Numbered from the whole stretch's first letter, positions 23,025-44,010 are shown. The stretch is DNA of 63,402 nucleotides, filler included, from Bilabrum cf. latius (GCA_965178125.1; 3 parts of 3 records of this genome joined end to end with filler, not necessarily neighbours in it), one strand, 5' to 3'. Program-made: numbers and translations. The notes: a model not told the origin generated them from the letters alone.

Positions 23025-23058
<34 letters not shown>

Positions 23059-23412
23059 GGGAGGGGGGGGGGGGGGGACTCCTACACACCGCTACGCCGA
23101 GCAAGGCCGCAATGGCGATTCCATCTCAGCGTCACCACCCCGCCGGCCGCCTGTACTCGCCGCAGAACGTGCAAACCTTGAGTTTGGACCATGGATTGCG
23201 GCCCGAGGTGAGACGAGCTTCGCACTAAGAGAAGAGTCAGACCCGTCGGACAATGGTCGGAAACAAGGGTTGCGCCCAAAGGCCCAACGCTTTCTCTCAG
23301 AGCGCCCCATCGCCCCTGAGTCGAGTCCCCAAAATCAGACCTCCATGGCCCTAGGCCCAACTGCAGAACGAAAGCGCCGGCCACGAGCGCCGCCCTCAGA
23401 CCCCGAAACCCA

Positions 23413-23658: not shown

Positions 23659-23758
23659 NNNNNNNNNNNNNNNNNNNNNNNNNNNNNNNNNNNNNNNNNN
23701 NNTTAATTAATTAANNNNNNNNNNNNNNNNNNNNNNNNNNNNNNNNNNNNNNNNNNNN
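23659..23758. other. Assembly gap with artificial linker
   Basis: N run - TTAATTAATTAA (stops in all six frames) - N run. Confidence 0.97.
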
Positions 23759-24138
23759 CCCGCCCATTCCGAATGCAAGAACGGACTCCCGCCCTTTCCG
23801 AGATCGAGAGCGCATCGCGGGCGCATTTCCCGACTCGCGATCGGCCTCGGAAACCGAACACGAATCGGTAGGAGACGTGCGCCCGCGTTTGAAGAATATG
23901 CGGAGAAATACGAAGCCAAGGACACGAGCATCTCCCGGGCACCTTTCCCGACTCGCAGCCGGTCTCAGAGACGACCACGAATCGGCACGACAAGTGCGCC
24001 CGATTTCGTCCCCCGAAAAAGGACACAACTAGGACCCCGCGGAGATCCGCATCTGCTCCTCACGCGCGGAACGTGTTTCGGTACGCAAAAAGCGGTCACA
24101 TGGGAGGCCCGGAAAGCGTCCGGAAAACGGTTCAGAAA

Positions 24139-26391
24139 TACCTTGCGTCACTCCTCCTGCGCGCCAGAAATCACACGACTTTTCGGTGACCGAAACAGGG
24201 CCCAAAAAACCAAAGATTTGCCCCTTCATGCCCGAAGACACAGCGTCACCGCCAAGCTGCCATCGCGGAGAAAATAAACCAGGTGGTGATGGAAAGTTAC
24301 GTTACGGTGGAGCTCAGTGTCATTTGTGTGTTCAACAGTGTGTATGATGCCGCTTCGTCTGGATGTCCGAGTCCGGATTTCACCTGGGGTATGGCCTATT
24401 GTGTGGTCACGTTCGCGTAGCTTTCACGTGTCAACAACGCGGAGGCTGCGAAAAGAACCATGCTCACGAACCATGCTCCACCGTAGCTTGATCACAACGC
24501 GGAGGCTGCGAAAAGAACCATGCTCCACCATAGCTTTCCAACAACGCGGAGGCTGCGAACGAACCGTGCACCACTGACCACCGTACAGCCCAAAAAGTAC
24601 AAGTTTTCTTGAACCCCAGGAGCAACATACGCGGGATACTGTCGACCGCCCGTTCGCTCAGGTCACACGCGACAGCAAGCCGAACGCTCAGGTCGCACGC
24701 TCAGGCCACACGCGGAAGCAGCGCCACGCAAGAGGCCAGGTTGAGAGGGAAAACCGTCACGCAAGCTCAACGCGGAGACCAAGAATCGTCATCGCTCCAA
24801 GCCTCGCGTCCAGACAGACGAACAAGCCCGCGCCATGCCTCATCGTAAAGATCCCTCTCGAAAACCCTGTGCTGCTTCATCGTTCCCAATGTCAGAATTT
24901 TCTCCGCAGTACAACGCTGCCCCTTCCGCTCCCCGGTCTCTACAATGAGATCCAACTGCATGCGAAGTGTTCCCGAGATCTTCTTCTTGTTCGCCGCGTT
25001 CATGATCGACGTCTTCGGCGCCGCGTCCCGCGCCTTCTCGCGACAAGCACGACAAGTAATCGCACCCCTGCCGCACGGAGAATCATCGGCATAAAGCGTA
25101 CGCTGCACGCGACGCACGAGACGATCACGCATACGATGATTCAGGTCCGCCATGACACGATTGCAGCCGCAGGAAGAGCATACAAACTCCGCGAGGTCGA
25201 AAGCCTTAGAGTCCGACCAAACGACGCACTGTGTGTCCTGAGGTGCCTCACTGCCGAGCGCTGTTACCTTGCGTCACTCCTCCTGCGCGCCAGAAATCAC
25301 ACGACTTTTCGGTGACCGAAACAGGGCCCAAAAAACCAAAGATTTGCCCCTTCATGCCCGAAGACACAGCGTCACCGCCAAGCTGCCATCGCGGAGAAAA
25401 TAAACCAGGTGGTGATGGAAAGTTACGTTACGGTGGAGCTCAGTGTCATTTGTGTGTTCAACAGTGTGTATGATGCCGCTTCGTCTGGATGTCCGAGTCC
25501 GGATTTCACCTGGGGTATGGCCTATTGTGTGGTCACGTTCGCGTAGCTTTCACGTGTCAACAACGCGGAGGCTGCGAAAAGAACCATGCTCACGAACCAT
25601 GCTCCACCGTAGCTTGATCACAACGCGGAGGCTGCGAAAAGAACCATGCTCCACCATAGCTTTCCAACAACGCGGAGGCTGCGAACGAACCGTGCACCAC
25701 TGACCACCGTACAGCCCAAAAAGTACAAGTTTCTTGAACCCCAGGAGCAACATACGCGGGATACTGTCGAGCGCCCGTTCGCTCAGGTCACACGCGACAG
25801 CAAGCCGAACGCTCAGGTCGCACGCTCAGCCCACACGCGGAAGCAGCGCCACGCAAGAGGCCAGGTTGAGAGGGAAAACCGTCACGCAAGCTCAACGCGG
25901 AGACCACGAGTCGTCATCGCTCCAAGCCTCGCGTCCAGACAGACGAACAAGCCCGCGCCATGCCTCATCGTAAAGATCCCTCTCGAAAACCCTGTGCTGC
26001 TTCATCGTTCCCAATGTCAGAATTTTCTCCGCAGTACAACGCTGCCCCTTCCGCTCCCCGGTCTCTACAATGAGATCCAACTGCATGCGAAGTGTTCCCG
26101 AGATCTTCTTCTTGTTCGCCGCGTTCATAATCGACGTCTTCGGCGCCGCGTCGCGCGCCTTCTCGCGACAAGCACGACAAGAAATCGCACCCCTGCCGCA
26201 CGGAGAATCATCGGCATAAAGCGTGCGCTGCACGCGACGTACGAGACGATCACGCATACGATGATTCAGGTCCGCCATGACACGATTGCAGCCGCAGGAA
26301 GAGCATACAAACTCCGCGAGGTCGAAAGCCTTAGAGTCCGACCAAACGACGCACTGTGTGTCCTGGGGTGCCTCACTGCCGAGCGCTGTTA
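24139..26391. repeat. Tandem duplication with a ~1126-bp unit
   Basis: 24139-25266 is nearly identical to 25265-26391. The first copy contains a 5'-truncated version of the CxxC ORF. Each copy has three internal repeats of ACAACGCGGAGGCTGCGAA. Confidence 0.95.
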
Positions 26392-26581
26392 TGAGCACCG
26401 CCGGATGGGCCGGCGACTTAGGAAGAAGTCGCGAACCGGGAGGAAACACGCGAGGCCGCTTGAAACCGACATCTCCGGCAAGAGGCGCAAGCATCTCCAC
26501 CTCGCCCTCCGGGGCGTGCTCGGAGGTCGACGCGGCAACCACGGCCACATACGGTGCATCGGCGATACCGACGTAGGCCAT
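25892..26581 (-). CDS. Hypothetical CxxC...CxxC protein (~229 aa)
   Basis: Intronless ORF downstream of and co-oriented with Rep, with CSSC and CRAC motifs. The reading frame is conserved in the duplicate (24767..25153). Confidence 0.55.
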   Translation of the reverse strand: MAYVGIADAPYVAVVAASTSEHAPEGEVEMLAPLAGDVGFKRPRVFPPGSRLLPKSPAHPAVLITALGSEAPQDTQCVVWSDSKAFDLAEFVCSSCGCNRVMADLNHRMRDRLVRRVQRTLYADDSPCGRGAISCRACREKARDAAPKTSIMNAANKKKISGTLRMQLDLIVETGERKGQRCTAEKILTLGTMKQHRVFERDLYDEAWRGLVRLSGREAWSDDDSWSPR

Positions 26582-26985
26582 CAAGCAACGCACCCACCTT
26601 CGGCCCGCGAGCGTACACGGCGCGCCTACCGGAAGCAGAGGCTTCTGAGACCAAGAAATGTCTCGTCGGCGCGCGACGCGGCGACGTAAAAGCAAACGAC
26701 CCGCCGGGTCCCAACCGCGGCACTGCGGAGACACACACACACTTGCAACCCATCAGGCTGGGTGCCACGTGTGTGTGTGTCAGGCAAGCTCCCAATACTA
26801 GGCAAGCACTCCCCCGGACGAACGCGACGGACCACATGAAACTTGCGGAATGCCCCCATGTAGAAACCACATCCTTTTTGCACACGAAACGCATTGAGGA
26901 CATTAGACCTTCAGGAGCACCGAAGCGGCTGCCGCTGCGGCTCCGGCGCTCGTGTGAACCGGACTGAAAACCTCAGCGGCCGGCG

Positions 26986-29271
26986 TCAGCTCTTCTGCAC
27001 ATCCGTGAGAGACAACAAGTCCTCGTCGAAGTAGAGCCGATCTTTCACCTCCACTTTCGTACAGTTGTTGTCAAGCCACTCGCGGTCCACCGACTCCGTC
27101 ACGTCAGAGCCCCACGAATTCGTGCAGATGATCAGGGCGATACCGTGGAGCCACACAGAGTATGCGAGGCTGTTCGTCTTGCTCTGGCCGAGCAGGGAGG
27201 GGTCAAGGCCAGCCTGAAAGACCTGTTTGTTGTTGACGACCCACAGGGCATTTGCCTCGTCGAACACAATGGCCACATGCCGACTTCGATCGAAGCCACG
27301 GAGCGGAGGTTCCACACTGCCCTGACAGTTCACAACAAGAGTCCTTTCGCTCCCGAAGAGATTCCGCGCGTACACTGTCTTCCCGAACCGGGAGTCCCCC
27401 ACCAAGACAAGGAACTTGAAGCGCATGTGCGCGAACCACTCCTGACGATAGCTCTCGCGCCACTTCTCGACTTCGGGCACCACCTTAAAGGGGCGGAGCT
27501 TCGTCACTACGTGCACCGCGGCCTGCGCGCACACCTCTCTCCTCTCCGCGGCATTCTGTATGTGGAAGTCGATGGCGCGCACTAAGTTCTCGGCGTCCCG
27601 ACACCGATACGCCACGAGTTCCCTTCTCGCGACGTCCGGATCCATTTTGAAGCGTGCGAACAACGCGTGCACGAACTTACCATTGACGACGAAATCGCGT
27701 CCGGCTCGGTAGTTCGTGGCGCAAAGCAGCGCACCGACTTTGGGAGCTTGACAATAATAGTGTAACTCCGACGCGCCACGTTCCTGCGCTTTCGCTGACC
27801 GCCCGGAGCCGTACACGACATTCGGCCTGCTGCCGGCCCACATGAAATCCTCCGCCACGCGACAACGATGCGACTTCTCGGAATCCGTCATGCATACGTG
27901 GAAGTGCACCAAGTTTGCGGCGTGCTTGCGGTGCAGGGAGAGCTCCATTTTCATGGACAGCTGAGGCCACATCATCCGCCGCGCGATGTCCTGCGCCCAT
28001 GCCTTGAAGGTGGCCCAAAGCTCCACATAGAACGGAGACGCGAGAACCAATCGCCTCAGGACGCCCCTTGCCACGGATGCCGACATGATGTCGCGCACAG
28101 GCTCCTTTTCGACACCCCAGCGACCGTGAAAGGTAAGCATCACGGCCCTTCCCCGCCTCGTGTTCTTGTCGGACGCAGGCACAATCTCGCCCACGGGCAC
28201 TGAATGCGATCCCGGATTCCTCACAACTTCGTCCCGCTGCCGCGCAAGCTCCGGGAAGAGCTCCTCGAAACGAAGCTGGCAAGGAGTGTCCTCCGCCCCC
28301 GCAGCCCAGTCTTTCAAGATGCACATGCGGTCACCGGGTACATTGCGAAGCGCCTCCCTGATGAGGCACCGCTTCCGCTGGTGTGACACCGACGCCGGAA
28401 ACGCCAACTTGAAATCGTCAGGGAAAACCCGCAGGAGACGATAGATGACACTATCAATAGGACGAGTCGAAGGCCTTCCAGTCGAGCGCTGCGGCCCAGA
28501 CGCTCCGGCCGCGGCACGAGCCGCGGGCGGAGGTCCGAGATGAGCCGCAAGACTCGATGCTGCATCGCCCTCAGCAGGGTCGCACTTCTGCCGAAGACGC
28601 CGCCTCTTCACGGGGGGCACGAAATCGGGAAGCATGAGCATCTGCGGTCGCCCCCTCGCATCGGGCGCAGAATCCTCGATGGGCAGAACCCCACGGTAAC
28701 CTTGACTACTCCGCAGAAGCTGCACCGGCAAAAGTACTTCCTCTGACGGGGGTTCCAAATTGATGACACCCGCGGCGAGCGCTTCGGAGGCAGCAACGCG
28801 GCCAGGAATGTCGCCCTCAACGCTGAGGCCCTCATAAAGGACTCGTTCACCCACTACGCCGATCTGCCACTGACCGCTCGACTTGCCGTGGGACAACAAG
28901 CAGGCTCCCGGATCGCCCTCGCATTCTGCCTCGCATGCGACCTCGCATGAGGCCTCAATCATGTCGAGACTGGCGTCGAAGTCGTTCTCCGCATCGTCAA
29001 AGCCAAAACTCGGGACAGCGGCCGCGCGCGCTGCAGCCACCGAATTGGAGACACCGAGGCCACACGAGCACGTTGGGGACGCCTCGGACACCCCTAACAA
29101 AGCAGAGGTCGCCGTCGTGGACGCTTCTGACTCCTGGCTTGTTGGGAGGCCATCGCACGGCACGCAGCTCGCGGAAACCCACGCGGGATCCCAGGAGCAG
29201 GATGCGACTCGGGACTTCAGCGACTCGGCAACAGACAAACTCATCGTTTCGCCCTTGAACGGAGCCGACAT
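26986..29271 (-). CDS. rep: CRESS-DNA-virus-like replication initiator (HUH endonuclease + SF3 helicase) with a long N-terminal extension
   Basis: RCR motif I VMLTF, motif II VHFHV, motif III YYCQAPK. Walker A GDSRFGKT, Walker B IVFDE, motif C IICTN. Intact 761-aa intronless ORF; the Rep core is about 28150-26986. Confidence 0.9.
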   Translation of the reverse strand: MSAPFKGETMSLSVAESLKSRVASCSWDPAWVSASCVPCDGLPTSQESEASTTATSALLGVSEASPTCSCGLGVSNSVAAARAAAVPSFGFDDAENDFDASLDMIEASCEVACEAECEGDPGACLLSHGKSSGQWQIGVVGERVLYEGLSVEGDIPGRVAASEALAAGVINLEPPSEEVLLPVQLLRSSQGYRGVLPIEDSAPDARGRPQMLMLPDFVPPVKRRRLRQKCDPAEGDAASSLAAHLGPPPAARAAAGASGPQRSTGRPSTRPIDSVIYRLLRVFPDDFKLAFPASVSHQRKRCLIREALRNVPGDRMCILKDWAAGAEDTPCQLRFEELFPELARQRDEVVRNPGSHSVPVGEIVPASDKNTRRGRAVMLTFHGRWGVEKEPVRDIMSASVARGVLRRLVLASPFYVELWATFKAWAQDIARRMMWPQLSMKMELSLHRKHAANLVHFHVCMTDSEKSHRCRVAEDFMWAGSRPNVVYGSGRSAKAQERGASELHYYCQAPKVGALLCATNYRAGRDFVVNGKFVHALFARFKMDPDVARRELVAYRCRDAENLVRAIDFHIQNAAERREVCAQAAVHVVTKLRPFKVVPEVEKWRESYRQEWFAHMRFKFLVLVGDSRFGKTVYARNLFGSERTLVVNCQGSVEPPLRGFDRSRHVAIVFDEANALWVVNNKQVFQAGLDPSLLGQSKTNSLAYSVWLHGIALIICTNSWGSDVTESVDREWLDNNCTKVEVKDRLYFDEDLLSLTDVQKS

Positions 29272-29959
29272 TATTTGCGCAAATAATCCTTCGACGAATC
29301 GCGGAATGCCTCAAGATAGAACACTTGCCTCCGACACGCAATGCCCAGAATCCTTGCTGTTCGAAACACCGAAACTGCTGACACGGGACACACATGAGCA
29401 CCGAGGCAGCTGAGTCTGCAGCTCGTGCCGCCCTGGGCGAGGTAGTACCGCTTCCGAGGGAAGGATTCTCGAAGCCAACGAAGGAAAGCATGGCGTTGCA
29501 ATTAGCACGATCACAAACGCACTTCGGAGCCTGCCAGAGAGGATGACCGACCGACCGCCTTCTCGAACATAGAAACCGGCGAATACCACATGAGGCACGA
29601 CGTTCCAGGGCATCCGAACCTGCGACATACGCCAAAAAGGCCTCGCCGACAACCTGAAATGCACGCGAAATCGACAACCGAACGCCCAAAATCAGCCATC
29701 GGAACCCCCCCTCGAGGCAGCGCCTTCGGAGACATTTTCGGCCAGCGAAAAAAATGCGAAACACGACTGGAGGAGGCGAGGTAGTGCTCGGTAGTGCTCG
29801 TTTCGCGCGGTTTTTACATAAAAAAATGCCGTTTTTCTGGAAAAAAAAGCTCAAAAACCCCCAGTTTTTGACACGTAGTGCTCCGATTTTCCTGTAAAAT
29901 GCAGGATTTTTTCACGGTAGTGCTCCCCTTTTTTCCGCTTTCCCCGACGCCAGGGACCG

Positions 29960-30026
29960 ATGTAGTGCGATTTTCGGGGAAGGATTCTTAGTACCTTAGA
30001 GGGTACCCCCGAGGGTCGCACTACGT
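29960..30026. promoter_or_regulatory. Stem-loop upstream of rep, candidate rolling-circle origin
   Basis: The arms ATGTAGTGCGATTTTCGGGG and CCCCGAGGGTCGCACTACGT enclose TCTTAGTAC and an inner GTACC/GGTAC hairpin. GTAGTGC repeats precede it (29780-29925), and a conserved second copy lies at 45677-45742. Confidence 0.45.
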
Positions 30027-30446
30027 GGGTTTGGGGGGTCTCCTTTCCTCTTATTCTCGCGTGCACTTTTCTGCGACTGCCCCCCGGACCTTCCGCGCAT
30101 ATCTGCTCGCTCTGATTCTACGGGGGGGCGGGGGTAATCAAGGATTAATGCCAAATTTGTCTTCCTTTCGTGCCCCTCCCGTTTTTCAAAGTTGTGCATG
30201 TCGAGTCTGCCCCTCCCGTGCTCTTGACGACGGTGCTCGCGGACTGAGTGATTTCTGCCAGCACGTCCCGTGTATGCTGTCCGAGTGCGCGACTCCGCTG
30301 GGCAGCCGCATCCGCTGCTTTGTGCTGCTCGGGCTATCTGTGTCCGTCAAGACTGCGCTGTACTTGACGCTCTGCCCTCTTGCGATGGCTTCTGTGACGC
30401 GGGGTCTATCTGTAATCCTCGGTTCTCTGAACACGGGAAGCGCTTC

Positions 30447-30917
30447 TCACAAGGTCGACTTCGCCTGGCTCGTTGAGGAGTTGGCGGAGCTGCGTGCTGC
30501 GATCTCTTCTTTTTGCACCAACTGCAAGATCTTCCTGTCTAGCACGATTTGGGCGAGCTCGTCGTCTGTGAGTTTTTTGGCGTTCTTCATGGTGCGCCTT
30601 TTCTGCCGGATGGTTTTGCGGATGGCCTTCGTTTTAGCCCGCTGCTCGAGCTTGAGAGCCTTGCGCTCCTCGGTAAGGCGTGTGATCGCTGCCGTCCACT
30701 TGTCGACGAACAAGGGTGTGTCGCCAGGTTCGTCCGTCTTGGCGGTCTTCTCTAGCGCTTCCATGTGTCCGTCTTTCGGGCAGGGCTCCTCGAAGAACTG
30801 CTGCGCATGATCTGGTTTCTGTGATCCTGCCTCCGTCGCTTCGGGTGGCGCCGCTGCATCCGCATCTCTAGGGGAGTCGAGCCGCATTGCGTCCTCCGGT
30901 TCTGCGTCGCTCGCCAT
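30447..30917 (-). CDS. Small protein with an acidic N-terminus and a basic coiled coil (156 aa)
   Basis: ITRLTEERKALKLEQRAKTKAIRKTIRQKRRTMKNAKKLTDDELAQIVLDR. A degenerate copy of its 3' end is at ~44550-44700. Confidence 0.65.
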   Translation of the reverse strand: MASDAEPEDAMRLDSPRDADAAAPPEATEAGSQKPDHAQQFFEEPCPKDGHMEALEKTAKTDEPGDTPLFVDKWTAAITRLTEERKALKLEQRAKTKAIRKTIRQKRRTMKNAKKLTDDELAQIVLDRKILQLVQKEEIAARSSANSSTSQAKSTL

Positions 30918-31792
30918 GGGGTGTGCAGTGAGTTTGCTTCCTGAGCGGGCTGCTTTTCTGTGCGAAGCTTCTGGCAGTTGCTGTATTCCTGGGCCCAAAA
31001 AAAACTCAGCGAGAAGTGCTTTCACATGGAGGTGGTGCGGTAAGAAGTGCGCGGGTCCTTGTAGACTGAAGTGCTTCCTGCGCAGAATGGGAGAAGTTCC
31101 ACTGCGGGGTCTCTCAGACGCGTCTGCATGAGGAGGTGGGGGGTGCGTCATGGTTGCATGCGAGAAGGTGAGCTTCGAGGCGGCGCCTGGGAAAGCCTTT
31201 CTGGGTCGTCTGGATGCTGCGAAATTTGCGAAAAAGGGGTCCCAATTTTGGGCCCGTTTTCGGTGACAATTTCAAGCCTCCCGCATCGTGTTTTCCTCTT
31301 GTGTACCCCTTTTTGGGCTCAAAACTGGTCCCGGAAAGTGTGACCTCGAAACTGCGTCCTTCGCGGTCCTCCCTTTGGCTTCTGGGGCCTCAGGTGTTTC
31401 CCTTTTTTCTGTGGGCAGCACTCTTTTTTGCGGAAGGGCGTTCCAGATTTTTGTCTGACGATGCCGCTTTAAAAAAGGACTTCTGATGTGGTGCGTGCTG
31501 GGTCCTGTCATCTCCAGACTTCCTCCGAGGATGCACACATGAGCGGGAAGAGGACACACATTGGCAGAAGAACTTCTGGACTTGTGACTCTGAAGCGCTT
31601 TGCGACTTTGGCACTGCGTGCTGCCAGCGTTCATGCACCGAGAGCATGCGGATCTCCACGTGCTATGCGACTTCCGGAGAGAATGGGACCGATGGAACTA
31701 TGTGACCCTCCAACTCCGGCGCTCGGCGGCCTTCTGCTGTTGCCTGCGGAGCTTTGTCTCCTCGCAACGCGCTGTTCCGCGGCATTTCGTCG

Positions 31793-34353
31793 TCAGGGCT
31801 CGTGCTTTACGCCGGGTGCCGGGGTCAGGCGCGCTCTCTTCGAAGGCTGTGCCTCAGTCCTGTTGGTGGAGGGCGACCTGGAATAGGATGAGGACGATCT
31901 GGAGCAGGATCTCGTGTCCTTGAGGCTTACGCTCCTCGCGAGCTTCAACGAATTCCCGTGGAAGGTCCGCGGAAGGCTCACGTACTCCTCCTCGTCCACG
32001 TCATACGGCTCACTGCCCTGCTGCTGCCGCCACTGGTTGATCACAAGCTTGATGAACGTTTTGCCCCAGCTCCATTCGGAATGACTCTGTGCCTGCTCGG
32101 TGAGCCACTTGTTGTATGCGATGTTCACCGTTTTGATGCCCTGCACCGCGGTGTAGAGATGCCCCGCGTTGAAGCGGTAACCTCGGTCGTCGGCATCCTG
32201 AAGGTTGTACCGGAGCCGGGCGTCCGCATGGCCGATGTCGTCCGAGGGGATGTGCTCGAAGACCTTTTGGCACTGGCGGCTCACGAACGGGTCGACGATG
32301 CACTGCGTGCTTTCCGCGTACTTGATCATGTGCCACATGGCTTCCTCGGCAAACCATTTGGAATAACTCAAGAGGTTATAGGTCTTGTCCTTGGCCCTTG
32401 AGTAGTTGTTCGCAATGTCCCGCAGTGCGGGCGAGTCCAGCACGGCGCGCCTCGTCTGGCACAGCGGGCCGTTCTTGAGGAGCTGCTTCCTGTTGCTCTT
32501 GTGCGGAGCGTACAGAGTTCGGATGACGTCTGGGATCACGGTGTCCGTGGCAGTCCTGCCCTTAAACATGAAGTGGTTCCAGGCCACGGTCCAGCTCATG
32601 ATGGGATAGTGCACTTGCATCGGAGGTATGAGCGTGAGGAGGCCCACGGTTTTCGCCAAGGATGCTCCCCAAGTAATCCAATCATCACTCGGGTTCTTCT
32701 CGTCGTGCCTCCTTTTGGGGATCATTTTCGGGAGGAGGAACGTTGGCGTTATGATGCGCTCCCTGAACTGCTTCGTGAGGTGCTTCATCATGTCCACCCA
32801 GACCTGTCCCAGCGGTTTGGTTGTCATGCGGATCACGACGAGGCGCGAGCTGCTGTCCCCCTTTAGGATGTCTTCCAACTCGTTCTGCAGCGCCTGCTTT
32901 GCCTCAAGGATGTAGTACTGGATGCTGTTGTCCTTCCCGCCGTTCATCCACTCCTGCTGCTCCTCTTGGCATCTCCCCTCGAGGCAATGCGCCGCCAAGT
33001 CCCTGTCGTCGCAGAGGACAAGCGCGTGGGTTGAGGGTGGCCACTCCAGCCATGAGGGCAGCTCGGCCCCCGGCATCTCCGTGTGGAGTTTATCGATCCA
33101 CTTCTGCTTGACTTGGATCCATCGAGCGGTCTGCCATTTCAAGGGAGGCAGGGTGTTCATCTTGGGCCTCTTCATGGCTACCATGTCGAGCATTCTGTCG
33201 AGGGTGGGGATGCACATCATCGGCTGCACCACGTGGATGCGGATGTCTCCGTACCTCAGGAAGTACGAATACGACCCGCCGCGTTTGTCCTGGAGGAGGT
33301 GGACGAACGTGTTGGTTTCGCCGGCGTGCTCGTGAACACCGCACAAGTCTTCGTAGGAGATGGGCACGCGCTCTGTTTTTTCCCAGACGAGGACAACCCC
33401 CCAACTCAGGGCCGCGCACACGGACATCACGACGGACAATGTGTTTAATCGCTCGCCAAGAGTCCAGTCGTCACTCGGGTCGATCATTATGTACGGTTTC
33501 ATACTGTGCCCTGCATCCGCACTTCGTCGTCCCGAGCCCCCCCACTCCGTGTCCATGCTCTCGGGAGTCGATGCGAGGACCGGGCTGGCTGCCAGCACAG
33601 ATGTCATGCGGAGGCAATCTTCCCACTTCCATACCGGCCCTTGGAACGTGTCGAAGAGGCGGCGCCAGACGCAGCGTTCGAAGCTTCGGTTCGGGATCCG
33701 CATCTTCAGGAGCGCTTCCTCCCCTCCGGGCTGATGAGATACCACTTTAGGCCCATGCCGACGTGGTAGGGGACCACAAATGTGTTGTCTACCCAGTGCG
33801 CCGGATAGGTCCGCACGTCCAAGAGGCGCTCGCAATTGTGGATGGAGGTGGAGTTTTCGCGCTGGAGGTTGACCATTCTCGGTGCTTCTGACCCCGCTAA
33901 CATGGCCATCTGCGTCACCTTGGGGTTTTTCGCGATGGCGTGAAGAACTACGAGTAGCCGATCCACGCATGCTTCGCGAGGTTCGATATCATCTTCGACA
34001 ACCATGAGCCATTCCGTCGGCGTGTGGTTCTCAGCCCACAGCCATGCGTTTCGATGGGATTGGATCGCCCCAACAGTGGCCGGATTGTATTTGCTCCAGT
34101 CCGTTATCTTGCCGGAGAAGATATCCAAGAGGGCCTGGTCTTTGACGATGTCGCGTCCATCTGGGTCCCTGTCGGTCTGCGGAAACACTGGATTGGGGAG
34201 CCGAAGGACCGCTCCCATGTGCTCGTGGAGTTCTCGCGCCCCTTTTTTTTGTCGCCACTCCTCGAAGCGGGACTCTTCCCTGCAGATCAGCAGACATGTC
34301 ATCTTCCCGAGGTCCTGGCGATGGTGTCCGAATTGCGCCTGGAAGCCCGACAT
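31793..34353 (-). CDS. Glycosyltransferase fusion: GT25-like domain + fucosyltransferase(GT-B)-like domain; 1-nt frameshift at ~33714
   Basis: GT25-like GAIQSHRNAW...WLMVVEDD and GLKWYLISPEGRK(A)LL, followed by TLGERLNTL...GVVLVW...ISYEDL (cf. GLGNRL...W...F.DLF). The duplicate at ~39100 has the extra G (AAGGCGCTC) that restores the frame. Confidence 0.65.
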
Positions 34354-37227
34354 CTCCAGAGACGGGAAATGGCATGCGCTGTGTGTCCAGCGGCGATCTT
34401 GCACTTCTGCTCCCGAAACTCGCGAATGCAGGATCCGGGAACATGAGCCTTGAAGGCGGCGGATTTTTGGATGGGGGACACCCGCGTCCTCTCTTCGCGA
34501 GCTTCGTCCTGATCCGATGCCCCAATTGAGCGCTCGACAGCAGGAACGATGAGGAACCTCAGTTCTGGTTTCGCATGTTTGCATGGCCTCTGGAAGCATG
34601 TCGTGTGCAGACCCTCCAAGCGCCTCGATGTCTGAGCATCGCTTTCTCTCCGCACGCTTCGTGCAAGGAATGCAACTCGTGCGTACCATCGTGGACTACG
34701 GGTCACAGAGACTCGGAAAGGGGAGCATGCCCGAATGCACATCGCGGACGGAATTTGTCCCACGCTATTGAAGGTGGTCACCGGACTCAGACTGCTGCGG
34801 TGCATGCTTCGCGCATTGAATGGAGGCGCGTAAAATCTTGCAGAATGCACAGAGGGGGTCATCCGAGCGGGATCTTTGTGTAGCATCTAGAGCGGCAGAT
34901 CGTGCGCAGGGGAGAATCCACACGCGGACTCCGAGGAGTGAGTAAGGCCGGCCCTGGAAGTCGTGCCGCGAAAGCGAATGAGCGCAACATGGCGACTGAC
35001 GGACGTCGCACGCTACGTACTTGTGGTCGCCCTCGTCCGGTCGCCCATCCCGGCGAATGGTGGCGCTGCAAGATCTGCGATGCCCGTCCGTGCCCGTCCC
35101 TCCTGGACGGCTCTGCCGAGGATCAGGGACGCTCTGGTTGTTTTTCCCTGAGCACCTGCGTTTCGAAAGCGGTCTTCCGCGTTTGCTACTTCCCCTTCGA
35201 ACTCCCTGCATTTTTGGCCGGAAAAGGCAACGAAGACAGGCGTGTGCTCCATAGACTGCTCGGACGAGAAGGTGTGTGCAAGAGCCTTTCCCAATCGTCA
35301 CGGGGGGTGAACTGCTGGGTCCGGAATGGATTTGACTCCTGGACTTTTGCGTGTGAAGCGTGAGGTGGGCGTGCTTCGTGGGAGGTTTCCGCATGCGGGG
35401 GGACGGGAACTTTCCTGGGTCGCTGGGCCTGGGACCGGGTAGCGGGAACTCGGGGACTTTCCCCGGGAAATGGATTCACAGAGCGTACGGTGATTTCCCG
35501 GGTCGCCCTTCTCGACCCCGAAGTGGAATTTGGCTTTCGGACCCGAATACAAGCTTAGAAGGAACTTTTTGTCTTCCGCGCCTGCGAAGGTGTGCCACGC
35601 GGGCGGTTCTTGTTCACGCACTTGCGCTGCAAGCAGTGAACGCGAGGCCGTCTGCGGTTTACGGCTACGTGTCATAGCGCGTCGTAGGATGTCGCGTTCC
35701 AAAAGAAGTCTAGCGGCTGGAGGGCGGTGAGTGAAGTGCACACGTAGTGATCGTGACGAACCGGGCGTCGACACTTGTCCTGGGCGACGTCCGAAACATC
35801 TACGCTGCGCTATTACGGCCAGTCGTGTACGCTTGGTGTCGGAGGGAAGACCCCTACGGTGTATACGGTTGCCGACGAACATAGTGATGTGGTAAGCGCA
35901 TTCGGAAGGGGGCGCACGAACGTGCGAGCAATAGCACGCCATTCCGCGTATCATGGTAGCCTGATATTACATGTGCCGCACAGAATTCTCAATCATTCGC
36001 GAGAAGTGTGTGCGGGGAGTACGCTGGGGTGGATAGAAAAGAGATGTCGTCCGCAGGATGTGTGCTCCCAAGGATTTGCTCGGAAGAATGCGGACGATCG
36101 TTTGGAATGCTGCTTTGCACGCAGACTCTATTTCATAGATATGCCTCCATTCGCTGTGACCCTCGTGCGACCGGCTTCGGACGAGTTCCGCAATCTTCGC
36201 AATCATGTGCATCCCATCTCGAGGTCTGCGGCAGCTTCTCCCGCAGAGGAGCCGCCGTGGGAGCCGCTTAGCATCCCCTCGTCGCAGGGACTTCACGGTA
36301 CGGTGTTGTTTATGTCTCTCGGGGTTTTTGTGATGCTCAGGTGCGCGGCCTCTTGCTCTCTTCGTGACCGATTTCGTTGTCGCAGTGCTGTGGGTCTCCG
36401 TAACGGGAATGTGAGGCAGTCTCGACACCTCGACGAGGTGTCATGCGTCATAAGGATCTGCGCGTCTTTGGTCACGGCAAGAGTGGGCGAGAGTCAAACG
36501 GGCAGAAATGATCGTAGCAGCAGCGCTCACGGGCCCGCGGCTCCGCGGTTCACTCCCGCTTGGGAGGGCTGACCAGCGTGTAGTGGGTGGGTCTTCCGGA
36601 AAGCGCCTAGAGATACTCATCGCATAGCCTTCCCTGGAACGAGTCCAGCATAGCCTTTTTTTTTTTTCGGCGGTCGTGGGGAGATACAATTCTCCCGCTG
36701 CGGAAGGCTGCACACTCCCGCATCGTGAAGTCAATCACGCAACACCGTGCCGACTCATGTACCGAGACCGATGCATCTTACCGTCAGCGGCGCTGGTGGA
36801 AGCCGCGCTGCGAACAAGCTCCTCTGCACCAGTTACCCCGCCTTTCCAATTCTCGCGCAACTGAACGTGACTCCTGTGGATACGCAGTTTCTTCACCCAG
36901 GGCGGGTGCTTCGCAACGTCGTGCGTGCCCCCTCTTGCCGTCGCGGGTGCTGAGACGCCTTCATGGTCATAAGGCGCCCTGAGCAGACTGCAGCGCGACT
37001 TCCAGTGACATTCCCGGCAAGAACACACTGCAGCTCACATGCAGCGAGCGGAAGGACCCAATCCCGCGCGTGGGGAGGCGCTATCGTGTTGTGTTGTGTG
37101 TCGTGTTTGTGGTTTATGTCGAGCTTTCGGCACTGCGCGGAATCGGGAATTTCGGGGGTCCTTGGGCCCGGAATCGGGGACCGGAAACTGAGGCAATTTT
37201 CGCCGCCAGATGGAGTGACGGAGAGTA

Positions 37228-38393
37228 CCGTCGTTTTCCGGGTCACCTTTTTCGGTCTCGAAATGGGAATCGGATTTGGGACAGGAATTGAAGCGGAGAA
37301 GGGCCACTCTAGGGCCTCCCGGGAGCCCTCTTGGGGCCCCCAAACAGCAAAACAAACCCCGGGGCCCGAACTGTGTCGCCGCAACTTAAATTCCTTGTGT
37401 GGATCGGCCATTTTTGGCCAAATCTGGGGGGGTCCCCTTCCGGGCCCCCCCAAAACGCTCAAAAAAAAAACACCACAACGTGGCGTTTTGCGTCTTTTTA
37501 GGGCGGTTTAGGGGCTCTAAAATCCACTACAACGTGGCGTTTTGCGTCTCTTTGGGGCGATTTAGGGGCTCTAAAATCCACCACAACGTGGCGTTTTGCG
37601 TCTTTTTTGGGCGATTTAGGGGCTCTAAAATCCACCACAACGTGGCGTTTTGCGTCGTTTGGGGGCTGCCTGGGGCCCATTTTTTCCACCACAACCTCGC
37701 GTTTTGCCCTTTTTGGGGCCGGGAGCCCTCTCGGGGCCCCCAAACCGCAAAAACAAACCGGGGCCCGAACTGTGTCGCCGCAACTTAAAGTCCTTGTGTG
37801 GATCGGCCATTTTTGGCCAAATCCTGGGGGGGTCCCCTTCCGAGCCCCCCGAAAACGCTCAAAAAAAACACCACAACGTGGCGTTTTGCGTCTTTTTTGG
37901 GCGATTTAGGGGCTCTAAAATCCACTACAACGTGGCGTTTTGCGTCTTTTTTGGCGATTTAGGGGCTCTAAAATCCACCACCACGTGGCGTTTTGCGTCT
38001 TTTTTGGGCGATTTAGGGGCTCTAAAATCCACCACAACGTGGCGTTTTGCGTCGTTTGGGGGCTCCTTGGGGCCCATTTTTTCCACCACAACCTCGCGTT
38101 TTGCCCTTTTTGGGGCCGGGAGCCCTCTTGGGGCCCCGAAACAGCCAAAAAAAAGCCGGGGTCCGAGCTGTGTCGCCGCAACTTAAATTCCTTGTGCGGA
38201 TCGGCCATTTTTGGCGAAATCCCCGCATCTGCTCCTCACGCGCGGAACGTGTTTCGGTACGCAAAAAGCGGTCACATGGGAGGCCCGGAAAGCGTCCGGA
38301 AAACGGTTCAGAAATAAGTACCGTCGTTTTCCGGGTCACCTTTTTCGGTCTCGAAATGGGAATCGGATTTGGGACAGGAATTGAAGCGGAGAA
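37228..38393. repeat. Nested tandem repeats rich in A/T tracts
   Basis: ~57-bp subunits (CCACAACGTGGCGTTTTGCGTC...GGGGCTCTAAAAT) sit inside ~420-bp higher-order repeats. 37228-37300 recurs at 38321-38393. Confidence 0.9.
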
Positions 38394-38534
38394 CGGACCC
38401 CAAGGTGTTACCTCTTGCCTCCATACGATGCTAGGATCTCCAGGTTTCTCAGTTTTAGGCAGCACTCGAAGGGGAAGCTTCCGACGGCGCGCCTATGACA
38501 TGCTGCCACCCATCACCGTGGTCATCTGGAGGAC

Positions 38535-38899: not shown

Positions 38900-41800
38900 T
38901 GGAGCCCCACGAAGTCGTGCAGATGATCAGGGCGATACCGTGAGCATCCTCCTTCTCCGTCTTCTTGCCGCCGTCGTACAGCCTGGCCGCGACACGATCT
39001 TGATGCCAAAACTCGAGGTTTCGCCGGCGTGGAACGTGTCGAAGAGGCGGCGCCAGACGCAGCGTTCGAAGCTTCGGTTCGGGATCCGCATCTTCTAGAG
39101 AGCGCCTTCCTCCCCCTCCGGGCTGATGAGATACCACTTTAGGCCCATGCCGACGTGGTAGGGGACCACAAATGTGTTGTCTACCCAGTGCGCCGGATAG
39201 GTCCGCACGTCCAAGAGGCGCTCGCAGTTGTGGATGGAGGTGGAGTTTCCGCGCTGGAGGCTGACCATTCTCGGTGCTTCTGACCCCGCTAACATGGCCA
39301 TCTGCGTCACCTTGGGGTTTTCGCGATGGCGTGAAGAACTACGAGTAGCCGATCCACGCATGCTTCGCGAGGTTCGATATCATCCTCGACAACCATGAGC
39401 CATTCCGTCGGCGTGTGGTTCTCAGCCCACAGCCATGCGTTTCGATGGGATTGGATCGCCCCAAGAGTGGCCGGATGGTATTTGATCCAGTCCGTTATCT
39501 TGCCGGAGAAGATATCCAAGAGGGCCTGGTCTTTGACGATGCCCTGCATCAACTGGTCCTGCACCGCACACTGCATGCACGATGGCATCGCGGAGATGAA
39601 TTTCTCCGCATTCCGGAGAAGCTCCATGGCCCGGTTGATGTCATCCAAGGCCTCGTCACGCGAAGGACTCTGACGCACGGCGTTGCTGCAGGAGGCGGCG
39701 CCTCCTGCAGGAGGCTCGTCGCGTGCGGGAGCACGAGCGTCGTTGTCGCCGTCACCGGTATTCGCGCCAGCTTTTGGCACCCAACGCTTCGCTTCACCCG
39801 CAGAGGAACGGACATCATGGAGACTCCAGCCACGCGCAACCAGGCACTTCGCGCACCAGTCCTCAGGGAAGAAATAGCGCAGGTTCTCCTTCTTCCGGCG
39901 GTTCTGGGGAAATCGGTACGCCGGATACTCGTTTTTGCAGTTCTTGCACCACACCCACCACGGCGTCGCGTTGTCGAACTTGTCGCAACACACCCAGCAA
40001 ACTGGTTGGATCCAGTCCTTCCACTTCTTGAAGTACGCCGACCGGGGCTTGCAGCACTGGCACGCGTTGCAAGTCCATGTCGCCTCCTCCGCCGGCTCCG
40101 GCGCGACCTGCCGCGGCACGTACGTCTCCCCCCATGACGACTTCGCAGGGGTCTCCCATAGATCCCAGCTATCAGCGCCAGAGACCGCCCCGGCAGTGTG
40201 CGCAAGATTCACACGCTGCGATGACAATGCCTCTGCCACGCCGCCACCCGCCTTCCAAGCGGCTGCGTCGGTCCATACGTCGTCATTACCTCCGGGCACC
40301 ACAGCACGTCCACCGCCGCGAGCATCCTCCTCCTCCGTCTTCTTGCCGCCGTCGTCTTCGGCGTCCTCCTTCGGCGCTGCCTTGCCGCTCTCCTCTCCGA
40401 GCATCCCCGTGGACGCCGCCTCCGCGCCGCCGCTCTCGATGTGGGAGCCGCCCGAATCATCGACGCTTGCCGCCGCGCCGGCGTGCTCCGCCGGGGCGTC
40501 GACCTCGCGCGCCAACATGCCGCCCTCGTTTCCCATATCACCGGCGCCTCGACGCCCACGAAGATTGCGGCCGTCTCCCAAGGAAACAGCAATGCTCTCG
40601 GACGGTTTCTCCTCAGACATCATCGGCAAAGAGACTCGGAGAATGCCGTTCCCGCAGAGTGCGCTGCTGACTGCCGAAGCCGAAAGAGGACCCGCGGAGA
40701 AGGAATCTCGCACATGCTCCCAGGAAAAGCAACTCCCCGCCCATTCCGAATGCAAGAACGGACTCCCGCCCTTTCCGAGATCGAGAGCGCATCGCGGGCG
40801 CATTTCCCGACTCGCGATCGGCCTCGGAAACCGAGATCTCCCGGGCACCTTTCCCGACTCGCAGCCGGTCTCAGAGACGACCACGAATCGGCACGACAAG
40901 TGCGCCCGATTTCGTCCCCCGAAAAAGGACACAACTAGGACCCCGCGGATCTCCGCCGGAAACTCGTTTTTGCAATTCTTGCACCTCACCCACCACGGCG
41001 TCGCGTTGTCGAACTTGTCGCAACACACCCGGCAAACTGGTTGGATCCAGTCCTTCCACTTCTTGAAGTACTCTGACCGGGGCTTAGGCCCTGGCACGCG
41101 TTGCAAGTCCATGTCGCCTCCTCCGCCGGCTCCGGCGCGACCTGCCACGGCACGTACGGCTCCCCCCATGACGACTTCGCAGGCGTCTTCCATGAACCCC
41201 AGGTTCCGACATCCTTCCCGTCTGCCACGCCGCCACCCGCCTTCCAAGCGGCTGCGTCTGACCATACGTCGTACACGACATTCGGCCTGCTGCCGGCCCA
41301 AATGAAATCCTCCGCCACGCGACAACGATGCGACCTCTCGGAGTCCGTCATGCATACGTGGAAGTGCACCAGGTTTCCGGCGTGCTTGCGGTGCAGGGAG
41401 AGCTCCATTTTCGTCCCGCTGCCGCGCAAGGTCTGGGAAGAGCGTCCGCATGGCCGACATCATCCGGAGCAGGGCGTCCGCATGCTCGACATCATCCGGG
41501 GGATGTGCTCGAAGACCTTTTGGAACTCGCGGCTCACGAACGGATTGACGATGCTCTGCGTGCTTTCCGGGGGGATGTGCTCGAAGACCTTCTGGAACTC
41601 GCGGCTCACGAACGGATTGACGACGCTCTGCGTGCTTTCCGGGGGGATGTGCTCGAAGACCTTTTGGAACTCGCGGCTCACGAACGGATTGACGACGCTC
41701 TGCGTGCTTTCCGCGTACTTGATCATGTGCCTCATGGCTGGGCCGCCCGCAACATCGACGCTTGCCGCCGCGCCGGCGTGCTCCGCCGGGGCGTCGACCT

Positions 41801-44010
41801 CGCGCGCCAACATGCCGCCCTCGTTTCCCATATTACCGGCGCCTTGACGCCCACGAAGATTGCGGCCGTCTCCCAAGGAAACAGCAATGCTCTCGGACGG
41901 TTTCTCCTCAGACATCATCGGCAAAGAGACTCGGAGAATGCCGTTCCCGCCTGCTTGACCCAACTGCAGGCCTGGCACTTGAGGTTGGTGATCACGGCCG
42001 ACTGCTCCCCACCCAAATACCAGACCGTACGCGAGCGCAGCCTATGAGGAATCCACTGGCCCGACTTCCGGGGCACGACCATCGCCAAGAGCTTCGACTG
42101 CGGCGCGTCGATCTGCAACCTCGACCCGCAATCGCTGAGCGTAATGGCGTCGTCGAAGATCCACGTGCCGCCCCAAGCATGCCGCCTGCGCTGCTGCCGG
42201 GAGCTCGGGTTCGGTACCTAAAAGCCGTACACGACATTCGGCCTGCTGCCGGCCCAAATGAAATCCTCCGCCACGCGACAACGATGCGACCTCTCGGAGT
42301 CCGTCATGCATACGTGGAAGTGCACCAGGTTTCCGGCGTGCTTGCGGTGCAGGGAGAGCTCCATTTTCGTCCCGCTGCCGCGCAAGGTCTGGGAAGAGCG
42401 TCCGCATGGCCGACATCATCCGGAGCAGGGCGTCCGCATGCTCGACATCATCCGGGGGATGTGCTCGAAGACCTTTTGGAACTCGCGGCTCACGAACGGA
42501 TTGACGATGCTCTGCGTGCTTTCCGGGGGATGTGCTCGAAGACCTTTTGGAACTCGCGGCTCACGAACGGATTGACGATGCTCTGCGTGCTTTCCGGGGG
42601 GATGTGCTCGAAGACCTTTTGGAACTCGCGGCTCACGAACGGATTGACGACGCTCTGCGTGCTTTCCGCGTACTTGATCATGTGCCTCATGGCTGGGCCG
42701 CCCGCAACATCGACGCTTGCCGCCGCGCCGGCGTGCTCCGCCGGGGCGTCGACCTCGGAAAGTGTTTCGGTACGCAAAAAGCGGTCACATGGGAGGCCCG
42801 GAAAGCATGGCATCACCCTTGCCGTCCCCATCACTGCGTCGTGGGATGCTGCTCAAGATAACTCGGCGTCTGTTTAGTCGAGGGCTGTCTTGACTAGGAG
42901 TTTGGCGGTGAAATCCAGGAGTTCCGTCTGCATCGTCAGGCTCTTGCCTTTCTGTACCATATCAAGAGGAGAGGGAAGACATGCAAAACCGACCCGCGAC
43001 TAATTCTATCCTACGGCCAAGCCACCTGCGGCGTCCGCGCGACTGGGCGTGCACGAGAACCGGCGCACTGCACTGCTTGAAATGCCACGCTCCCGAGCGA
43101 AGGGAGTACGTTGTTCTGCAGAACGCTCTAGTCTTGGTGCGCTTGCAGCGGCACTTATCGGTGCGCCGCGGGGAACGGCTCGCGTGGGATTCGGAGGCGT
43201 ACCCGGCCCACGACGGGAGGAGTTCCCCAGTTACGTCTGGAGTGATTGGGGGACAAGGTGGGCATCAAGTCGGCGCCTCCTGAGCGTATCACAGAGGATG
43301 ACGAACCGCCCGCCCCGCTTCGATCCCGACCTCGAAGTGCACTCGAAATCAAGGCGGAACGCTGGAAATCCGCCCCGAAACCCTCCATGTTTGTTGACAA
43401 GGACCCAGGCTGCGCTCCGACAAGCTGACAAACTTCGTCAGCCTCCGAAGGGTCTTCATTAAATATTCAACGCTTCCGGGGTCAATGAGGTAATGCACTA
43501 CCAAAGAGCAGCTGGGCCGTGTGTCGTCCGAGATGACAAAGATCGTGGGCATCATCGATCCAGAGGGCGTCAAAGGCACGGACGACGCGGGCGACATTGA
43601 CCCCGACGGGCTGGAGGTCCTGGACCGCGTCTGGACGCCCCATCCGGAAGTATTCCTAAGCGCTCCCGACGGACGAGACCTTCTCTGTCTGAAATCAGGC
43701 ACCCAACCCTTCCGCACAAGGTGAAGAGAGAACGCCGACGGACAATATCCTCTCTTTTGCACATCGGGCATCCAACCCCTCCGCACAGGTGAGCAAGCGA
43801 CGAGTTCCCTTCTCGCGACGTCCGGATCCATTTTGAAGCGTTGGAACAATTCGTGCACGAACTTACCATTGCCGACGAAATCCCGTACGGCTCGGTAGTT
43901 GGTGTTGCAAAGCAGCGCACCAACTTTGGGCATCTGACAATAATGGAGCTCGAAGGCGCGGCGCTCCTGGGCTTTCGCTGCCCAACCGGAGCCGTACACG
44001 ACATTCGGCC
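38900..44010 (-). pseudogene. Mosaic of rearranged fragments of rep, the glycosyltransferase gene and a zinc-finger gene
   Basis: Matches include 38901-38942=rep 27107-27148; 39031-39540=33642-34150; 41270-41410 and 42227-42368=rep 27810-27950; 41499-41735=three tandem copies of ~32247-32340; 41949-42218=46478-46746; 43797-44012=diverged rep 27612-27830. Confidence 0.85.
39307..41463 (-). CDS. Chimeric 718-aa ORF with repeated CxxC zinc-binding units, flanked by rep- and GT25-derived pieces
   Basis: CNAC..KPRSAYF...CWVC...CKNC...WCAKC, partly duplicated, fused in frame to the GT25-like segment. Confidence 0.35.
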   Translation of the reverse strand: MMSAMRTLFPDLARQRDENGALPAPQARRKPGALPRMHDGLREVASLSRGGGFHLGRQQAECRVRRMVRRSRLEGGWRRGRREGCRNLGFMEDACEVVMGGAVRAVAGRAGAGGGGDMDLQRVPGPKPRSEYFKKWKDWIQPVCRVCCDKFDNATPWWVRCKNCKNEFPAEIRGVLVVSFFGGRNRAHLSCRFVVVSETGCESGKVPGRSRFPRPIASREMRPRCALDLGKGGSPFLHSEWAGSCFSWEHVRDSFSAGPLSASAVSSALCGNGILRVSLPMMSEEKPSESIAVSLGDGRNLRGRRGAGDMGNEGGMLAREVDAPAEHAGAAASVDDSGGSHIESGGAEAASTGMLGEESGKAAPKEDAEDDGGKKTEEEDARGGGRAVVPGGNDDVWTDAAAWKAGGGVAEALSSQRVNLAHTAGAVSGADSWDLWETPAKSSWGETYVPRQVAPEPAEEATWTCNACQCCKPRSAYFKKWKDWIQPVCWVCCDKFDNATPWWVWCKNCKNEYPAYRFPQNRRKKENLRYFFPEDWCAKCLVARGWSLHDVRSSAGEAKRWVPKAGANTGDGDNDARAPARDEPPAGGAASCSNAVRQSPSRDEALDDINRAMELLRNAEKFISAMPSCMQCAVQDQLMQGIVKDQALLDIFSGKITDWIKYHPATLGAIQSHRNAWLWAENHTPTEWLMVVEDDIEPREACVDRLLVVLHAIAKTPR

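Follow-up and report, generated by a model that had tools for sequence, protein, structure and literature searches.

A bounded 12-13 kb insertion carrying a CRESS-type Rep in Bilabrum cf. latius and the link of its Rep family to pogo-like transposases

Replication proteins (Reps) that combine an HUH endonuclease with a superfamily 3 (SF3) helicase are a hallmark of CRESS DNA viruses (whose circular, single-stranded genomes encode a Rep) and of small plasmids, and the eukaryotic transposons that use HUH enzymes, Helitrons and Replitrons, have other Reps. How does a Rep of the first kind come to lie inside a long insertion with inverted ends, and what brought it there? We address this question in a stretch of 63,402 nucleotides from Bilabrum cf. 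latius (GCA_965178125.1), hereafter the window, made of three contigs joined via spacers (44 N, TTAATTAATTAA and 44 N) at 23659-23758 and 47124-47223. The element under study sits in the middle contig (23759-47123; 23,365 bp, GC content ~58%). It is a real, precisely bounded and low-copy mobile insertion of 12-13 kb, occupying 24141-37223, or 24141-37225 if the flanking TA is a duplication, and an intact copy of rep is found within it.

Boundaries of the insertion

The limits of the insertion are seen by comparison with a second copy of its target in the same contig. The left half of the interrupted unit (flank A, 24047-24140, plus strand) is 100% identical to 38223-38316, and the right half (flank B, 37224-37303, plus strand) is 99% identical to 38317-38396. 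In the uninterrupted A-B unit, or empty site (38223-38396, plus strand), both halves are contiguous at 38316/38317. This copy reads GGTTCAGAAATA/AGTACCGTCG, i.e. GAAATA/AGTACCG, with the slash at the insertion point, while at the filled site the left junction is GAAATA/CCTTGCGTCACTCC and the right one GGAGTGACGGAG/AGTACCG. The filled and uninterrupted copies are separated by a satellite (37304-38222, plus strand) with 54-bp subrepeats within ~398-bp units. The breaks between the two copies are sharp, in agreement with a reading made from the sequence alone, which had proposed a discrete insertion with inverted-repeat ends, and those ends coincide with homology breakpoints that the uninterrupted copy sets independently.

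At both ends the insertion is abutted by TA (24139-24140 and 37226-37227), and 13 of the first 16 nt, TA included, match in inverted orientation; both points had been claimed before and hold when the sequence is read again. The left terminal inverted repeat (TIR; 24141-24205, plus strand) starts with CCTTG followed by CGTCACTCC, with the TA at 24139-24140 before it. The right one (37160-37223, plus strand) ends with GGAGTGACGGAG, and the next bases are AG TA CCG. The repeats are degenerate, also as first described, aligning over ~60 nt with a score reached by 2 of 2000 shuffles. Their 9-nt perfect core, CGTCACTCC, is found at 24146 (plus strand), at 37212 (minus strand) and in a tandem duplicate at 25272, its only sites in the 63 kb. 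The core lies in inverted orientation, at a distance of 5 nt from the break on the left and of 3 nt from that on the right, and an exact inverted 9-nt match starting no more than 5 nt from both ends was obtained in 40 of 200000 random position pairs. When joined, the element ends fold into a strong hairpin with a 9-bp stem and the joint in the loop.

Since the region is rich in repeats and scaffolded, chimeric junctions or a recombination mosaic could have produced such a picture. Several features point to an artefact: the first spacer is only 380 bp left of the element's left end; a 1,126-bp tandem duplication at this end is unseen in other runs; a frameshift at 33714 is absent from three runs; and in all four runs, of four studies, that were compared as contigs with 23760-38500, loose ends at 24117 and 38293 point to at least one more sequence to the right of flank A besides the two known. 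Against them, at least 0.81 of the sampled words of 23760-33759 is present in ten runs, which come from six studies and bear six coded organism labels. Moreover, contigs of two runs from different studies, X1 and X9, pass both junctions with 0-7 differences. The left and right junctions are crossed by 24111-24463 and 34121-37253, respectively, in X1, and by 24111-24433... and 36658-37253 in X9. All of these contigs stop after no more than 30 nt of the repeated flanks, the way k-mer graphs break off where they branch. In addition, two proteins 99-100% identical to products of the element (P0152 and P0156) are both listed with a longest contig of 25,927 bp, distinct from the 23,365-bp contig of the window. 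The insertion is probably not an assembly artefact, and we regard this explanation as very improbable.

The tandem duplication mentioned above (24139-26390, plus strand) extends from the left end as two 99% identical copies of the 1,126-bp unit (24139-25264 and 25265-26390), joined at the shared TA (25265-66). No joint of this kind was found in X1 or X9, where the depth of the region is that of the rest of the element (46-61 in X1 and 17-25 in X9); the duplication is assembly- or strain-specific. Unique parts of the element have a depth of 55-61 in X1, versus 40 for the unique flank near 38400, and of 20-23 in X9, versus 9.5 for the unique flank, which suggests about one to two copies of the element and not a high-copy family.

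A degenerate version of the right junction is found inside the element. The 183-nt block at 35382-35562 (plus strand) is a 71% paralogue of 37121-37302, comprising the last 103 nt of the element and 79 nt of flank B, and the similarity runs unbroken across the junction. Either this type of junction is old or recurrent, or flank B is part of the element family. We considered a nested older element inside the insertion and rejected it, because only this block and a 22-nt motif near 31246 recur. The motif CGTTTTCCGG of flank B was also evaluated as a dispersed motif common to the relatives of the element and discarded: within the window it is confined to the A/B sites, and in 178.6 kb of related loci it turned up 3 times, approximately as expected by chance.

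The Rep protein and its family

The rep gene (26986-29271, minus strand) encodes a protein of 761 aa composed of an N-terminal extension of ~340 aa with a basic KRRRLRQK stretch, followed by the HUH endonuclease and then the SF3 helicase. The HUH motifs are MLTFHG, HFHVCM and HYYCQAPK, and the SF3 motifs are GDSRFGKT, VFDEA and ICTN. No frame-shifting difference in the gene is listed across four runs. Rep residues are given in the numbering of P0001, and the query for the homologue search was the segment 338-761. With it, an exhaustive HMMER search recovered 1,355 proteins at E <= 1e-3, 210 of them at E <= 1e-30; a word-based search with the full Rep found no match. The best relatives have 52% identity and also present an N-terminal extension, of ~330 aa.

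The catalytic positions are well preserved. Residues H119, H121, Y169, K174, G293, K294, E335 and N381 are invariant in 40 aligned sequences. HUH motif II corresponds to HFH at 119-121, with H119 at least 90% conserved in 150 sequences, and motif III (HYYCQAPK) contains Y169 and K174 in a Y-x4-K spacing. In the SF3 domain, Walker A (G293/K294/T295), Walker B (D334/E335) and motif C (N381) are conserved in the relatives, and the family alignments keep a motif I (LLTW-like), HxH, HYYxQxPK, GxxxxGKT, DE and N.

Structure prediction points in the same direction. The AlphaFold model has a mean predicted local distance difference test (pLDDT) of 92.2 when built with a 150-sequence alignment, against 34 in a single-sequence prediction. 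Foldseek comparisons with BFVD returned CRESS Reps over both domains (390-500 columns, E from 3.4e-15 to 1e-9), belonging to genomoviruses (Genomoviridae), cruciviruses, one geminivirus (begomovirus) and many uncultured CRESS viruses. In PDB, the matches were Rep68 of adeno-associated virus 2 (AAV2; E 7e-8) and the Vientovirus Rep (1.4e-6), and also papillomavirus E1 and the large T antigen (LTag) of simian virus 40 (SV40). For the ATPase domain, VIA-align gave Z 10.5 with the Rep ATPase of porcine circovirus 2 (PCV2; rmsd 2.7, 121 aligned) and Z 10.9 with SV40 LTag, general AAA+ domains matching alike. A protein-language-model search led to Cressdnaviricota Rep clusters at 0.96-0.97.

Curated models, on the other hand, do not cover this family. 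The Rep matched 0 Pfam families (the Viral_Rep, Gemini_AL1 and RNA_helicase models being unmatched), and in 40 of its relatives only Gemini_AL1_M was matched, in 2 of 40, with a best E of 1.2e-3. PDB sequence and profile searches and PHROGs gave no significant match for the Rep. A profile of its N-terminal region had weak HMG-box matches (E 0.17-0.36), which we take as a lead only. A scan of viral contigs with the Rep alignment yielded 13 pattern matches and no relative. Judging from the conserved motifs and from a model that matches CRESS and AAV Reps, this is a bona fide HUH+SF3 protein with the architecture of CRESS viruses, as the sequence-only reading had recognized, and its large family, missed by curated models, is apparently undescribed. 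The N-terminal extension and the basic stretch, similar to a nuclear localization signal, make the family look eukaryote-associated, and the gene layout, together with the KRRRLRQK-type stretch, looks eukaryotic in appearance.

With CRESS-DNA virus Reps (Cressdnaviricota) and those of the pCRESS plasmids of Kazlauskas et al. 2019 (PMC6668415), this protein shares the single-tyrosine HUH domain followed by SF3 and the same two-domain fold. It differs from them in the absence of Pfam Rep or helicase matches, in the ~340-aa N-terminal extension and in the Y-x4-K spacing. The element differs from CRESS genomes too, being an integrated unit of 12-13 kb whose ends are 60-nt inverted repeats, where those genomes are circles of a few kb. 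Its identification as a CRESS virus was rejected for its size, for the lack of any capsid family found and because the nonamer, even allowing one mismatch, is absent from the element.

At 29940-30045, some 700 nt upstream of where rep starts, there is a long imperfect hairpin. It is branched, with a dG of -26.7 kcal/mol (z -5.05), and 0 of 200 shuffles were as stable. A second copy (88%) occurs at 45669-45805, among the scrambled fragments described below. We consider it a candidate origin or regulatory structure, located away from the element ends. At its top this hairpin has AGTACC, a hexamer also present in the target right after the insertion point.

Transposase linkage and the mode of movement

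Scanning metagenome contigs for relatives of rep gave 38 loci, of which 25 were too short to judge the upstream gene. A pogo-like DDE gene is near rep in 12 of the 38. Of the 11 loci with 1.4 kb or more of upstream sequence, 10 have it directly upstream of rep and co-oriented with it. It is also upstream in L022 and is downstream in L002, and L010 has none. Pfam DDE_1 (PF03184; pogo/Tigger type) is matched with E from 2e-6 to 2e-13 in the four genes tested, and the catalytic columns (DxD...D / D...D...D) are kept in the DDE genes of these relatives. The DDE-linked loci correspond to about seven lineages, several of them being near-copies, and DDE and Rep identities co-vary (rho 0.60 over 28 non-independent pairs). 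In a quick tree of 49 Reps, the window sequence is joined with P0002 and P0003 at support 100, within a clade of 22 rows (support 96) that includes L001 and the DDE-bearing L002, and most DDE-linked loci form its sister group. Of all our results, this recurrent linkage in related contigs, in which the Rep family and pogo-like transposases co-diverge, is the lead of greatest interest. If functional, it would be a bridge in eukaryotes between rolling-circle replicons and transposons of the cut-and-paste kind, and would offer a testable route for replication genes of single-stranded DNA virus type to settle in genomes. Even with the Rep as mere cargo, the family is a new source of endogenous Rep genes, invisible to standard annotation.

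As a tentative first choice, we suggest that the insertion is a non-autonomous TIR element, kin to TIR elements in which a Rep of this family is paired with a pogo-type DDD transposase. Such a transposase, supplied in trans, would excise the TIR-bounded unit and reinsert it at TA, and the Rep would be the replicase of the excised copy, or cargo. In this register (24141-37225), both inverted repeats consist of 5 nt plus the 9-nt core, with TA on each side, and the empty copy, TA-AG-TA, is equal to TA, the last two bases of the element (AG) and TA. The 2-nt staggered cut of Tc1/pogo-type transposases leaves the terminal dinucleotide as a footprint. The empty copy may thus be the donor-site footprint of a local hop, with AG being the last dinucleotide of the element, and a hop from it into the identical site 1.1 kb away would explain the pattern without coincidence. 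We rank the TA register first because the pattern at the empty site otherwise needs a coincidence of about 1 in 256 and because of the linkage of the family to transposases; the fact that the junction of the tandem duplication falls at TA was also counted in its favour. An orthologous empty site would be expected to read GAAATACCGTCG, with one TA, under TA duplication and GAAATAAGTACCG under none. Pogo and Tc1/mariner elements (DDE_1, PF03184) share with our element the TIRs and the TA flanks, TA-AG-TA would fit their footprint, and the reps of the relatives adjoin DDE_1 genes. Differently from them, the element has no transposase in the window, measures 12-13 kb, carries four cargo genes including the Rep and has outermost end bases that are not conserved.

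Several results weigh against this interpretation. Read most simply, the uninterrupted site shows that the target was not duplicated on insertion. The outermost five bases of the two ends differ (CCTTG on the left and CTCTC on the right), an uncommon feature in DDE elements, and the ends do not recur elsewhere in the 63-kb window, the tandem duplicate aside. A profile made from the transposases of the relatives found no DDE gene in six frames of the window (best E 0.016), and its comparison with the two large open reading frames (ORFs) by hhalign gave a probability of 0.1. The DDE-linked relatives have a Rep identity of only 24-36%. In L007, inverted arms of 5,656 nt enclose the DDE-rep core in place of short TIRs, as do arms of at least 1.5 kb in the L018/L020/L026 group, and the locus with the closest context, L001, with rep and a CxxC gene, has only 541 bp upstream.

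The suggestions of the sequence-only reading about movement fared accordingly in part. It is right as to the TA flanks at both ends, but the uninterrupted paralogue, TAAGTA, at face value shows no duplication of TA, which this reading had named as the Tc1/mariner signature; this site indicates either zero duplication or an excision footprint of Tc1/pogo style. Its idea of a replicon moved in trans by cut and paste is unexpectedly supported by the related reps that follow pogo-like DDE genes, but the window itself has no transposase, and the Tc1/mariner transposase with the same TIRs that this reading proposed to look for was not found in the 63 kb.

Taken at face value, the site has the element inserted between ATA and AGTACC, at a point that lies in a potential hairpin of the target. 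CCGGAAAACG, at 24120-24129 in flank A, is one arm of a 10-bp inverted repeat bracketing the insertion point, and CGTTTTCCGG, at 37232-37241 in flank B, is the other. In the empty site they form a perfect 10-bp stem with a 19-nt loop, GTTCAGAAATA/AGTACCGT, again with the slash at the insertion point. The stability of this hairpin is modest (z -1.97), 11 of 200 shuffles folding equally well. This arrangement, of a kind that suits HUH enzymes, is what would be expected if a rolling-circle replicon had been integrated by its own Rep, which would nick the loop of the joined-end hairpin and transfer the strand into the loop of the target hairpin without duplication. The Rep is intact, with all its catalytic motifs, and the joined ends form a strong hairpin with the joint in the loop, although the joined ends of any TIR element would do the same. 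In the left end and in flank B alike, CGTC starts 5 nt rightward of the break, a weak 4-nt match, but the break sequences are otherwise unrelated (GGAG/CCTTG and AATA/AGTAC). Also unfavourable are the absence of the nonamer and of any circle or head-to-tail joint (37223 to 24141) among the 14 joints listed for four runs, although rare forms can escape contigs. The family-wide DDE linkage further suggests that the role of integrase lies outside the Rep. We therefore place integration by the Rep second, possible but doubtful, behind the TA register with a pogo-type transposase.

Some known systems bear on this alternative. AAV Rep68/78 acts on a hairpin-forming terminal repeat, and integration takes place at a site that mimics the origin. 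Our element shares with this system the HUH+SF3 Rep, for which AAV gave the best structural matches in PDB, and a hairpin-forming terminal repeat; it has no parvovirus-like capsid or inverted terminal repeat, no detectable similarity between ends and target and no relation at the sequence level. As described by Craig 2023 (PMC10288648), Replitrons and Helitrons are eukaryotic mobile elements with HUH Reps that insert without target duplication, which is what the target would present here at face value. According to the same paper, Replitron Reps have a single tyrosine (Y1) and no helicase, with short direct terminal repeats, and in Helitrons the Rep has two tyrosines and is fused to an SF1B helicase. 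The window Rep, compared with the latter as there described, has one conserved catalytic tyrosine context and an SF3 helicase. A Replitron was ruled out by the presence of a helicase and by the inverted ends, and a Helitron by the SF3/AAA+-like helicase with no SF1, a separation that the first reading had already drawn. Our full-text literature search revealed no described transposon using an HUH-SF3 Rep, and neither this search nor passage checks of PMC6668415 and PMC13595969 turned up a eukaryotic TIR or DDE element with a CRESS-type HUH-SF3 Rep.

Both chemistries could also be parts of a single system. The Rep family and the pogo-type transposase may form an undescribed class of eukaryotic elements, cut out at TA and pasted back by the DDE enzyme and, between these two steps, amplified by the Rep as an excised copy with joined ends, in rolling-circle mode, from the joined-end hairpin. 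The element of the window would be a member that lost no replicase or CxxC gene and carries no transposase. We consider this bolder proposal less probable than either of the two readings above.

Finally, the insertion might not be a transposon. A Rep-encoding episome or virus-like DNA could have been captured once, by illegitimate recombination, at a break in a fragile palindromic repeat and later rearranged, the inverted ends being those of a linear or hairpin-ended donor. The depth is close to one full copy (55-61 versus 40 in X1; 20-23 versus 9.5 in X9), the target is a palindrome beside a satellite, a scrambled and decayed set of fragments lies 2-9 kb away, and short repeated pieces form a mosaic throughout the 23.4-kb contig. 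Endogenous geminivirus-related DNA is likewise found in rearranged arrays. However, the insertion is base-exact relative to the paralogous site, with neither deletion nor filler, which is uncommon for end-joining, and the inverted repeats fall on the breakpoints. The old paralogue of the right end and flank B within the element suggests, in addition, that this type of junction was formed more than once. We think such a capture unlikely, and place it behind all the other readings except the artefact.

Other genes and the surrounding locus

The four genes of the element are all on the minus strand. Directly downstream of rep is a gene for a CxxC...CxxC protein of 229 aa (25892-26581, minus strand), with a truncated duplicate (aa 64-229) at 24770-25267. 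Its homologues include P0156 (100% identical) and P0157 (60%). The pair formed by rep and this gene is conserved, since in the metagenome locus L001 a 26% identical CxxC homologue is found directly downstream of a 39% identical rep. A third gene, an ORF of 234 aa (30447-31151, minus strand), has a basic, heptad-like C-terminal region, for which it had been called a coiled-coil protein. No homologue was found for it, and its support is the open frame only; X9 and the run X11 have a 1-nt difference within it, at 31138.

The largest gene, labelled a glycosyltransferase (GT) fusion, spans 31793-34302/34689 (minus strand) and appears here as two overlapping ORFs (33706-34689 and 31793-33970). The split is due to a 1-nt frameshift at ~33714, present in this assembly only, as X1, X9 and the run X12 carry an extra C that joins the frames. 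The intact form corresponds to P0152 (836 aa, 99% identical), whose start methionine aligns near residue 130 of the upstream ORF, and three further homologues have 31-59% identity. Its N-terminal ~200 aa are weakly GT25/glucosyltransferase-like (E 4.7e-4 in PHROGs; GT25 at E 5e-3 in one homologue), so that the label comes from sub-threshold matches only, and its C-terminal ~640 aa have no match in Pfam, PDB or Atlas. In X1 and X9 contigs, 26 extra bases follow 34694, just upstream of the start of the longest GT ORF. The four co-oriented genes of the sequence-only reading are thus correct in their orientation, but the GT frame is split in this assembly and the coiled-coil gene is an ORF only. 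This reading had recognized neither a capsid nor a DDE gene, and here we agree with it: the 7 ORFs scanned in the element had no Pfam family, with nothing capsid-like or integrase-like, and the six-frame search with the DDE profile was negative.

Among the related contigs, L007 (1-17426) presents two perfectly complementary arms of 5,656 nt reaching the contig ends and a core of 6,114 nt with DDE and rep. It could be a large element whose inverted termini are very long, or else a palindrome created by the assembly. The inverted arms of contigs of this type carry genes for proteins of 760 aa and 170-215 aa without known family. The 760-aa protein is found beside DDE-rep in L014 (2227-4518), L025 (1812-4088) and L018 (8276-10648, minus strand), with an invariant IGGYDE...GGQDVDL, which we take to be reminiscent of GT-A glycosyltransferases. 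It has no match in Pfam or PDB, and a kinship with the GT-fusion family of the window was rejected after comparison, the two being unrelated.

To the right of the target there is a second, scrambled and decayed set of fragments (39026-45805, plus strand), in the orientation of the element and 82-98% identical to it. It comprises the N-terminus of the GT gene, rep aa 440-554 broken into three pieces, GT aa 544-587 broken into four, and the hairpin region. These co-oriented fragments at 39-46 kb indicate that the locus received or reshuffled DNA of the element more than once. Pieces of rep, of the GT gene and of the left flank are stitched into a chimeric ORF of 718 aa (39307-41463, minus strand) that remains open across the joins. 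It has no Pfam family and is probably not a gene. The left flank 23759-24050 recurs within it, at 40736-40956. Near the left end of the element, a low-depth contig (2.7) of X12 passes from 29570 through 12 unmatched bases to 24137, 4 nt before that end, and represents either a rearranged copy or a chimera.

The assembly of the window is identical to none of the compared runs, and X1 and X9 differ from it at many single positions. No RNA run is among the listed runs that share words with the window. Those with a small share include a marine sediment metagenome, from which we claim no habitat. The order of contigs across the spacers may be arbitrary, and the neighbourhood beyond 23659-23758 and 47124-47223 carries no meaning. 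Ten large ORFs outside the middle contig had no Pfam family, and no Rfam family was found in the window. The tRNA-Ala(GGC) called by ARAGORN at 47986-48079 was discarded as probably spurious, as it lies inside a tandem repeat with a period of 6 bp. Before the first spacer, the segment 21900-23080 is dense in short tandem repeats, with an excess of C over G (GC skew of -0.58 at 22-23 kb), and a run of ~50 G is found at 23029-23080, just before the spacer.

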